Of a stretch of 64,000 bases of DNA, positions 57,232 through 57,448 are shown one piece after another. Location of the stretch: NCBI RefSeq assembly GCF_030013595.1, contig NZ_CP122768.1, one strand, 5' to 3'. A program made the translations under genes and the position numbers. Each line of letters opens with the position of its first letter. Within the stretch, counting starts at the first letter, position 1. The notes beneath the pieces are model-generated. The model ran no database searches. It was given only the letters and a program-made list of their open reading frames with translations, and was not told the DNA's origin. The stretch comes from Escherichia coli. Its GTDB lineage: Bacteria > Pseudomonadota > Gammaproteobacteria > Enterobacterales > Enterobacteriaceae.

Positions 57232-57448
57232 TATTACGACGCTGACCTGGCGGACTGCTGCCGCCAGGTCAATATGCTAAAAATCCCTTCATTTCTAATA
57301 ACCCTATAATTAATCAACGAAATTATAATGTTTCTAAAATTAGAATATAATTTATAAACATTATTTAAATGTTGTTACTTAAGTGTTACCGTTGATGCCG
57401 CGCAAATCTCACCTGCAATAAAGCGACTAAAAGTAAGGCATTAACAAG

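Follow-up and report, generated by a model that had tools for sequence, protein, structure and literature searches.

The window, by which we mean the whole 64-kb stretch of Escherichia coli DNA that was analysed, carries the open reading frames of ada, alkB, yojI, mqo, eco and napF around a 217-bp spacer (57232-57448) that lies between yojI and mqo. The mqo reading frame runs from 57449 to 59095, and its product is malate:quinone oxidoreductase. Its translation signals occupy 57434-57451 on the plus strand, where a Shine-Dalgarno sequence (TAAGG, 57434-57438) precedes the ATG start codon (57449-57451). A 417-bp query across the spacer matched 5421 of 5426 complete E. coli genomes, and the genes flanking it are annotated in RefSeq as yojI and mqo. 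When compared with K-12 MG1655 (NC_000913.3), the spacer showed one mismatch, at 57265. Since it differs from K-12 by this single base, the data published for K-12 can be transferred directly to the window. A window position x was converted as 2362225 − x for U00096.2 and as 2364203 − x for NC_000913.3, and both conversions were anchored by sequence matches.

The spacer as a whole is 34% GC, and its core (57280-57390), which lies upstream of the mqo promoter and overlaps it, is 20% GC. The region upstream of mqo is therefore as AT-rich as the earlier note on this DNA had described it. RNA polymerase in the form of the RpoD holoenzyme has been reported to bind this spacer in vitro in Genomic SELEX experiments, as has H-NS (Shimada 2014, PMC3946193).

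The yojI side of the spacer contains a GC-rich hairpin on the plus strand, TGACCTGGCGG-N7-CCGCCAGGTCA, which spans 57243-57271 and has perfect 11-nt arms at 57243-57253 and 57261-57271. It is located 12 nt past the yojI stop codon and folds as DNA with −13.9 kcal/mol (z −6.3), a value that none of 200 shuffled sequences equalled. No other inverted repeat in the spacer is clearly non-random, and this one lies outside what the earlier note had claimed. E. albertii carries a compensatory change in the hairpin (GGTGG/CCACC), and the base at which K-12 differs, 57265, is a G-U-compatible variant within it. There is no T-tract next to the hairpin on either strand, and a terminator scan made no call there. 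The hairpin is probably a 3'-end or stabiliser hairpin of yojI and not a canonical intrinsic terminator.

The mqo promoter

The mqo gene is transcribed from a weak σ70 promoter whose start has been published. Kim et al. 2012 (PMC3415461) mapped a single transcription start site (TSS) for mqo, which corresponds to a G at 57400 on the plus strand of the window and gives a 5' UTR of 49 nt. Their TSS table lists it at 2304825 on the minus strand of U00096.2 with the promoter string ATTTATAAACATTATTTAAATGTTGTTACTTAAGTGTTACCGTTGATGCCG, and no TSS is listed between mqo (2304825) and yojI (2306690). The start comes from this single high-throughput data set (10 reads), and no further record of an mqo TSS matched among the entries listed in the Cappable-seq supplements of Ettwiller 2016. 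In a σ70 hexamer scan of our own, TTTAAA-17-TACCGT ranked near the top and its predicted start at 57399/57400 coincided with the TSS of Kim et al. We infer from this agreement that TTTAAA at 57364-57369 (plus strand), 17 bp upstream of TACCGT, is the −35 hexamer, and that TGtTACCGT at 57384-57392 on the same strand is an extended −10 element, with TG at 57384-57385 and TACCGT at 57387-57392. The latter overlaps the third of the ArcA direct repeats described below.

A different σ70 promoter, TTGATG-16-TGCAAT, was given by Shimada 2014 (PMC3946193) as the best-match promoter prediction in the RpoD-bound spacer and not as a mapped start. Its predicted hexamers lie at 57391-57396 and 57413-57418 on the plus strand (57391-57418 overall), so that this promoter is 25 bp downstream of the one assigned here, and the implied TSS is near 57425. 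We found no mapped TSS for this promoter, and its −10-like block CACCTGCAAT is also conserved. If transcription started from it, the ArcA site would be placed at about −64 to −33 and the inverted repeats further upstream, and the verdict on the repeats would be the same.

The 5' UTR of mqo (57400-57448) contains a block, TCACCTG(C/T)AAT, which is conserved in most genera and doubles as the −10 element predicted by Shimada. Since mqo has been listed as a putative or predicted target of the small RNA FnrS (PMC10993149), the conserved 5' UTR may have post-transcriptional relevance.

Three perfect TATAAT hexamers are present in the AT tract further upstream, at 57305-57310, 57324-57329 and 57346-57351. 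One of them has TTATAA upstream at a spacing of 17 bp, with a predicted start near 57358, where Kim 2012 lists no TSS. These hexamers could be cryptic promoters silenced by H-NS. A generic promoter scan returned one promoter-like match, on the minus strand, which is the level obtained with shuffled sequence.

Inverted repeats in the AT-rich core

The earlier note had reported two nested inverted repeats in this core, and both are present as described. In the outer one (57326-57363), the arm TAATGTTT at 57326-57333 has its perfect reverse complement in AAACATTA at 57356-57363, and these arms lie at −74 to −67 and −44 to −37 relative to the TSS. The inner one, AACATT-ATTTA-AATGTT, occupies 57357-57373 (−43 to −27) and has the −35 hexamer at its centre. 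The outer pair can be extended to arms of 14 nt (57325-57338 and 57351-57364) that are 93% complementary. The repeats are real, but the term "nested" is a loose one, as the tract contains several small AT palindromes with different centres.

The level of complementarity expected by chance was estimated by shuffling the AT core 1000 times with its dinucleotides preserved. Of the shuffles, 12% had a perfect arm at least as long as the best one observed (9 nt), and 6.7% had at least two arms of 8 nt or more. For arms of at least 6 nt, eight were observed in the AT core against a mean of 3.8, and eight or more were seen in 4.2% of the shuffles. The inner and outer repeats are thus marginally above chance, with a repeat content about twice the shuffle mean (P≈0.04), and the result is not strictly null. 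Other AT-rich stretches of the window had 0-3 arms of this length compared with the eight at mqo; since those stretches are less AT-rich (26-30% GC versus 20%), the shuffle control is the fairer test. The earlier note had itself cautioned that AT-rich DNA readily gives rise to inverted repeats. This caution describes the repeats better than an operator does, given the chance-level ArcA signal and the lack of palindrome conservation reported below.

Much of the complementarity may be traced to other properties of the tract. The core contains an imperfect direct repeat of 28 nt on the plus strand (57305-57373), with copies TATAATTAATCAACGAAATTATAATGTT at 57305-57332 and TATAATTTATAAACATTATTTAAATGTT at 57346-57373 at a spacing of 41 bp. 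The two copies are 75% identical (21 of 28 positions match, P≈0.004 in Markov-1 simulations), and both end in AATGTT; these ends are the two same-strand arms that the inverted repeats use. TGTT or AACA words occur five times in the core compared with an expectation of 1.4 (P≈0.01), and four of the seven Gs of the AT core fall within TGTT. As ArcA half-sites the three arms are weak, with scores of 5.8 bits for ATGTTTC, 7.1 bits for ATGTTTA (minus strand) and 6.2 bits for ATGTTGT. We propose that extreme AT-richness, an old imperfect direct duplication with a 41-bp offset and TGTT/AACA words resembling ArcA half-sites would together be the sources of the complementarity. A single inverted AACATT within the conserved TATAAACATTA block, placed in DNA that is 80% AT, would suffice for both repeats, and the outer repeat would then amount to AATGTT at −73 paired with the TATAAACATTA block at −47 to −37. 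That block would occupy the place expected of a proximal UP-element subsite. In genera without one 11-bp unit it aligns with TTTAAAC located 17 bp upstream of the extended −10, which is the expected −35 position.

The ArcA operator and its conservation

The mqo gene is a textbook case of control within the ArcA regulon, and the original work with mqo-lacZ and ArcA is reportedly that of van der Rest in 2000. Earlier lacZ-reporter evidence that ArcA represses mqo is cited in PMC2266799. In the study of Park et al. 2013 (PMC3798270; PLoS Genet 9:e1003839), mqo was derepressed 31.8-fold in a ΔarcA strain under anaerobiosis, and ArcA ChIP-seq peaks were located at 2304831 and 2304821, which are 57394 and 57404 in the window. 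Their Table S6 reports lower σ70 occupancy at mqo under anaerobic conditions and a site at −39 to −8. This published site, TTATTTAAATGTTGTTACTTAAGTGTTACCGT, corresponds to 57361-57392 on the plus strand and consists of three direct repeats at 11-bp spacing, scoring 2.7, 11.4 and 5.7 bits (Table S4). Its 18-bp core box is listed as ttgttacttaagtgttac with 20.5 bits (Table S3) and corresponds to TTGTTACTTAAGTGTTAC at 57372-57389 of the plus strand. The window is identical to K-12 throughout 57361-57392.

The regulator motif scans that the earlier note had proposed gave a clear signal for this box. A position weight matrix (PWM) was built from the 114 other boxes of Table S3 (Park 2013), with the mqo box left out. 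It scored 57372-57389 at 20.8 bits, which is the highest value anywhere in the window and would be rank 4 among 115 boxes. Simulating the same 126 bp 2000 times under a Markov-1 model gave P≈0.002 for a score this high. In contrast, the best ArcA box in 57296-57371, the stretch with the outer and most of the inner repeat, reached 9.4 bits, which is at chance level in the simulations (P=0.45). Eleven other consensus motifs were at chance as well. An ArcA operator is expected to have at least two TGTTA-type elements of 10 bp in the same orientation, 11 bp apart from centre to centre; this arrangement was found in the direct repeat and not in the inverted repeats, whose arms face opposite ways and score singly at 5.8-7.1 bits as half-sites. 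Of the inner repeat, only the right arm (AATGTT, 57368-57373) lies inside the ArcA operator, and the outer repeat, which is otherwise upstream, shares only 3 bp with it (57361-57363). The idea that the repeats mark an operator for a global regulator, for example ArcA, was therefore correct in that the spacer holds a published ArcA operator, but the element that is recognised is a set of direct repeats 11 bp apart and not the palindromes.

Two other sites in the window followed the mqo box in PWM score. The second-best, ATGTTAATTGTTTGTGAA at 50919-50936 (17.8 bits), resembles the ArcA box of rcsD, which in K-12 is atgttaattatttgtgaa with 21.4 bits (Park 2013). If ATGTTAATTGTTTGTGAA is that box, this strain would differ from K-12 at two of its positions. 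The third-best was TTGTAATCAATACGTAAA at 9090-9107, with 15.5 bits.

The ArcA operator at −39 to −8 overlaps the −35 and the extended −10 elements assigned above, a position compatible with repression. With regard to the K-12 operator of Park 2013, the sequence, strand, position and regulatory effect all carry over to the window. The inverted repeats (57326-57373) are unlike it, as the strong part of the operator includes only six of their bases (57368-57373). The arrangement at mqo is shared with lpdA, cyoA, sthA, glcC and putA (Park 2013, Table S6), where the sites likewise lie over the −35/−10 region, σ70 occupancy drops anaerobically and derepression in arcA mutants is strong. The sites of lpdA (−38 to −6), cyoA (−38 to −7) and sthA (−36 to −5) are placed much like that of mqo (−39 to −8). 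There is no difference of substance between mqo and these other ArcA-occluded promoters, and mqo is among those with the strongest derepression (31.8-fold) and the highest-scoring boxes.

Orthologous mqo loci were taken from species-representative genomes, and 16 species were aligned. An ArcA box was found at the same place in Escherichia (18.3-20.8 bits) and in most Citrobacter (14.5-16.9 bits, as with TTTTTACTTAAGTGTTAC at 16.5 bits), while two Citrobacter scored 10.8 bits. The most conserved non-coding block across the 16 species reads T·TAAAC··T·TTTA···TT followed by TGnTA(C/A)CGT, to which the Shine-Dalgarno AAGGCA, invariant in all 16, can be added. A TTTAAA-like hexamer lies 17 bp upstream of TGnTAMCGT in 16 of 16 species, and the distance from TACCGT to CACCTG is 23 bp in all species that have both landmarks (14 of 16). 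The conserved spacing of the hexamers supports the promoter assignment, and the conservation of the right-hand arms of the repeats reflects promoter and operator architecture and not a palindrome.

The pairing itself followed a different pattern. Complementarity of the outer repeat is complete (8/8) only in Escherichia; it falls to 3-6/8 in Citrobacter, whose left arm is TAACATTT, and to 0-4/8 in Enterobacter, Leclercia and Lelliottia. For the inner repeat both E. albertii and E. whittamii are down to 5/6, and other genera have 3-5/6. Pairing cells made up 59% (outer) and 75% (inner) of the alignment compared with 57% and 72% after column shuffling, which indicates no covariation. Each repeat has one G·C pair, which is retained in 5 of 16 species; C57359 is invariant, and its supposed partners G57330 and G57371 both vary. 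Outside Escherichia, the arms of neither repeat are maintained as a complementary pair at the orthologous mqo promoters. The TAAAC at 57355-57359 is invariant in 16 of 16 species and reads on the opposite strand as the ArcA-like half-site ATGTTTA (7.1 bits). Judged by its sequence, the right-hand arm could contribute to the binding of ArcA-P or of another protein.

The spacing within the operator differs among the genera. TAAAC and TACCGT are 34 bp apart in Escherichia and Citrobacter versus 23 bp in the Enterobacter group, a difference of exactly one 11-bp repeat unit. In the comparison of 57353-57396 with these genera, the extra unit, TGTTACTTAAG, sets Escherichia and Citrobacter apart from Enterobacter, Lelliottia, Leclercia and Pseudenterobacter. 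It creates the strong two-repeat ArcA box, and a second TTTAAA, 11 bp downstream, takes the −35 position. In one Lelliottia strain, the counterpart of the inner-repeat region instead forms a 21.8-bit ArcA box, ATGTTTAAAAATTGTTAA. Many Citrobacter have a second strong ArcA box, ATGTTATTAATACGTTGA (17.5-18.1 bits), in inverted orientation about 145 bp upstream of mqo and about 58 bp upstream of the proximal box; it is homologous to 57303-57320 of the window, where the E. coli counterpart scores 5.9 bits.

Possible roles of the repeats and significance

The half-site character of the arms raises the question of whether the inverted repeats serve as oppositely oriented ArcA half-sites, over which ArcA-P would oligomerise across the −35/UP region or from which it would loop to a distal site, making repression stronger. 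All three arms do score as weak half-sites, the core is enriched in TGTT/AACA words, and TGTTT at 57329 precedes TGTTA at 57373 by 44 bp (4 x 11). The strong inverted box near −145 in many Citrobacter would also fit such an arrangement. In addition, ArcA-P footprints often extend over 30-60+ bp and sites with up to five repeats are known (Park 2013, PMC3798270), and the footprint at mqo could reach into the inverted repeats. However, ArcA is described as reading direct repeats at 11-bp spacing, and the flank search of Park 2013 (PMC3798270) returned the weak upstream repeat of 2.7 bits and none further upstream. The chance-level ArcA score across 57296-57371 and the low score of the E. coli counterpart of the distal Citrobacter box argue against it as well, and the defining Gs of the half-sites (57330 and 57371) are not constant even among Escherichia and Citrobacter. 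We consider it unlikely that the repeats extend the ArcA operator in this way. It is similarly improbable that the AT tract from −95 to −37, with its 41-bp duplication, invariant TATAAAC block and inverted TGTT half-sites, is a second regulatory module of mqo. Such a module could be a remnant or weak partner of the distal Citrobacter box (at about −145), with ArcA-P bridging or looping between the two, or it could nucleate H-NS and act in cooperation with ArcA.

A regulator or nucleoid protein that reads palindromes, such as Fur, Lrp, ArgR, NsrR, Fis, IHF or H-NS, might instead use the repeats as its operator and place mqo under carbon-source or growth-phase control. The arms, ATAATG.../...CATTAT, superficially resemble halves of a Fur box, and the best matches in the tract were 8/10 for the H-NS nucleation motif and 10/11 for Fis. 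None of the 11 consensus motifs scanned (Fur, IHF, Lrp, ArgR, Fis, H-NS, CRP, FNR, NsrR, OmpR and NagC/Mlc) was above Markov-1 composition-matched sequence, however, with P values of 0.34-0.99, and full-text literature searches on the mqo promoter yielded no report of another regulator site at mqo. The mqo tract does resemble H-NS-bound AT-rich tracts and UP-element-like DNA: it is 80% AT, extends from −120 to −40, lies in a spacer flagged with an H-NS Genomic-SELEX site (Shimada 2014, PMC3946193), and contains many small self-complementary AT words and TATAAT hexamers. It differs from H-NS-bound tracts in that its H-NS nucleation match is not above chance and the SELEX flag is resolved to the level of the spacer. 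H-NS, moreover, binds AT-rich DNA without needing these repeats, and the palindromes are not conserved outside Escherichia. An operator for a palindrome-reading protein is therefore very unlikely. Less credible still, to the point of being negligible, is the formation of a DNA cruciform, or of an RNA hairpin in transcripts that read through from yojI or start at upstream cryptic promoters, with an effect on transcription. The 59 nt at 57320-57378 do fold as DNA with −7.8 kcal/mol (z −2.4; 5 of 200 shuffled sequences did as well), and the three TATAAT hexamers make upstream starts conceivable. But the stems are almost purely A-T with long loops and competing folds, the frequency of the minimum-energy structure is 0.10, and neither repeat shows covariation. 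The repeat region also lies upstream of the only mapped TSS, with no start between mqo and yojI in Kim 2012. An Rfam scan of 56900-57800 at a permissive E-value gave nothing near any gathering score.

We conclude that the locus is the published ArcA-repressed mqo promoter and that the inverted repeats are very probably incidental to it, with no role as a recognition element of their own. We propose that under reducing or anaerobic conditions phosphorylated ArcA would bind the three TGTTA-type direct repeats at 57361-57392. Bound in this position, it would cover both promoter elements and exclude RNA polymerase, and mqo would be turned off by occlusion. The inner repeat would then consist of the flanks of the −35 hexamer, and its right arm would be the start of the ArcA repeats.

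The operator, the TSS and the regulation of mqo are already known, and the use of the present result is a negative one, in that it advises against annotating these inverted repeats as an operator. When ArcA is suspected, scans that work from sequence alone should look for TGTTA direct repeats spaced by 11 bp and not for palindromes. As to the evolution of the operator, the comparison of genera suggests that one 11-bp unit builds a strong ArcA box while the spacing of the −35 and −10 elements is preserved.
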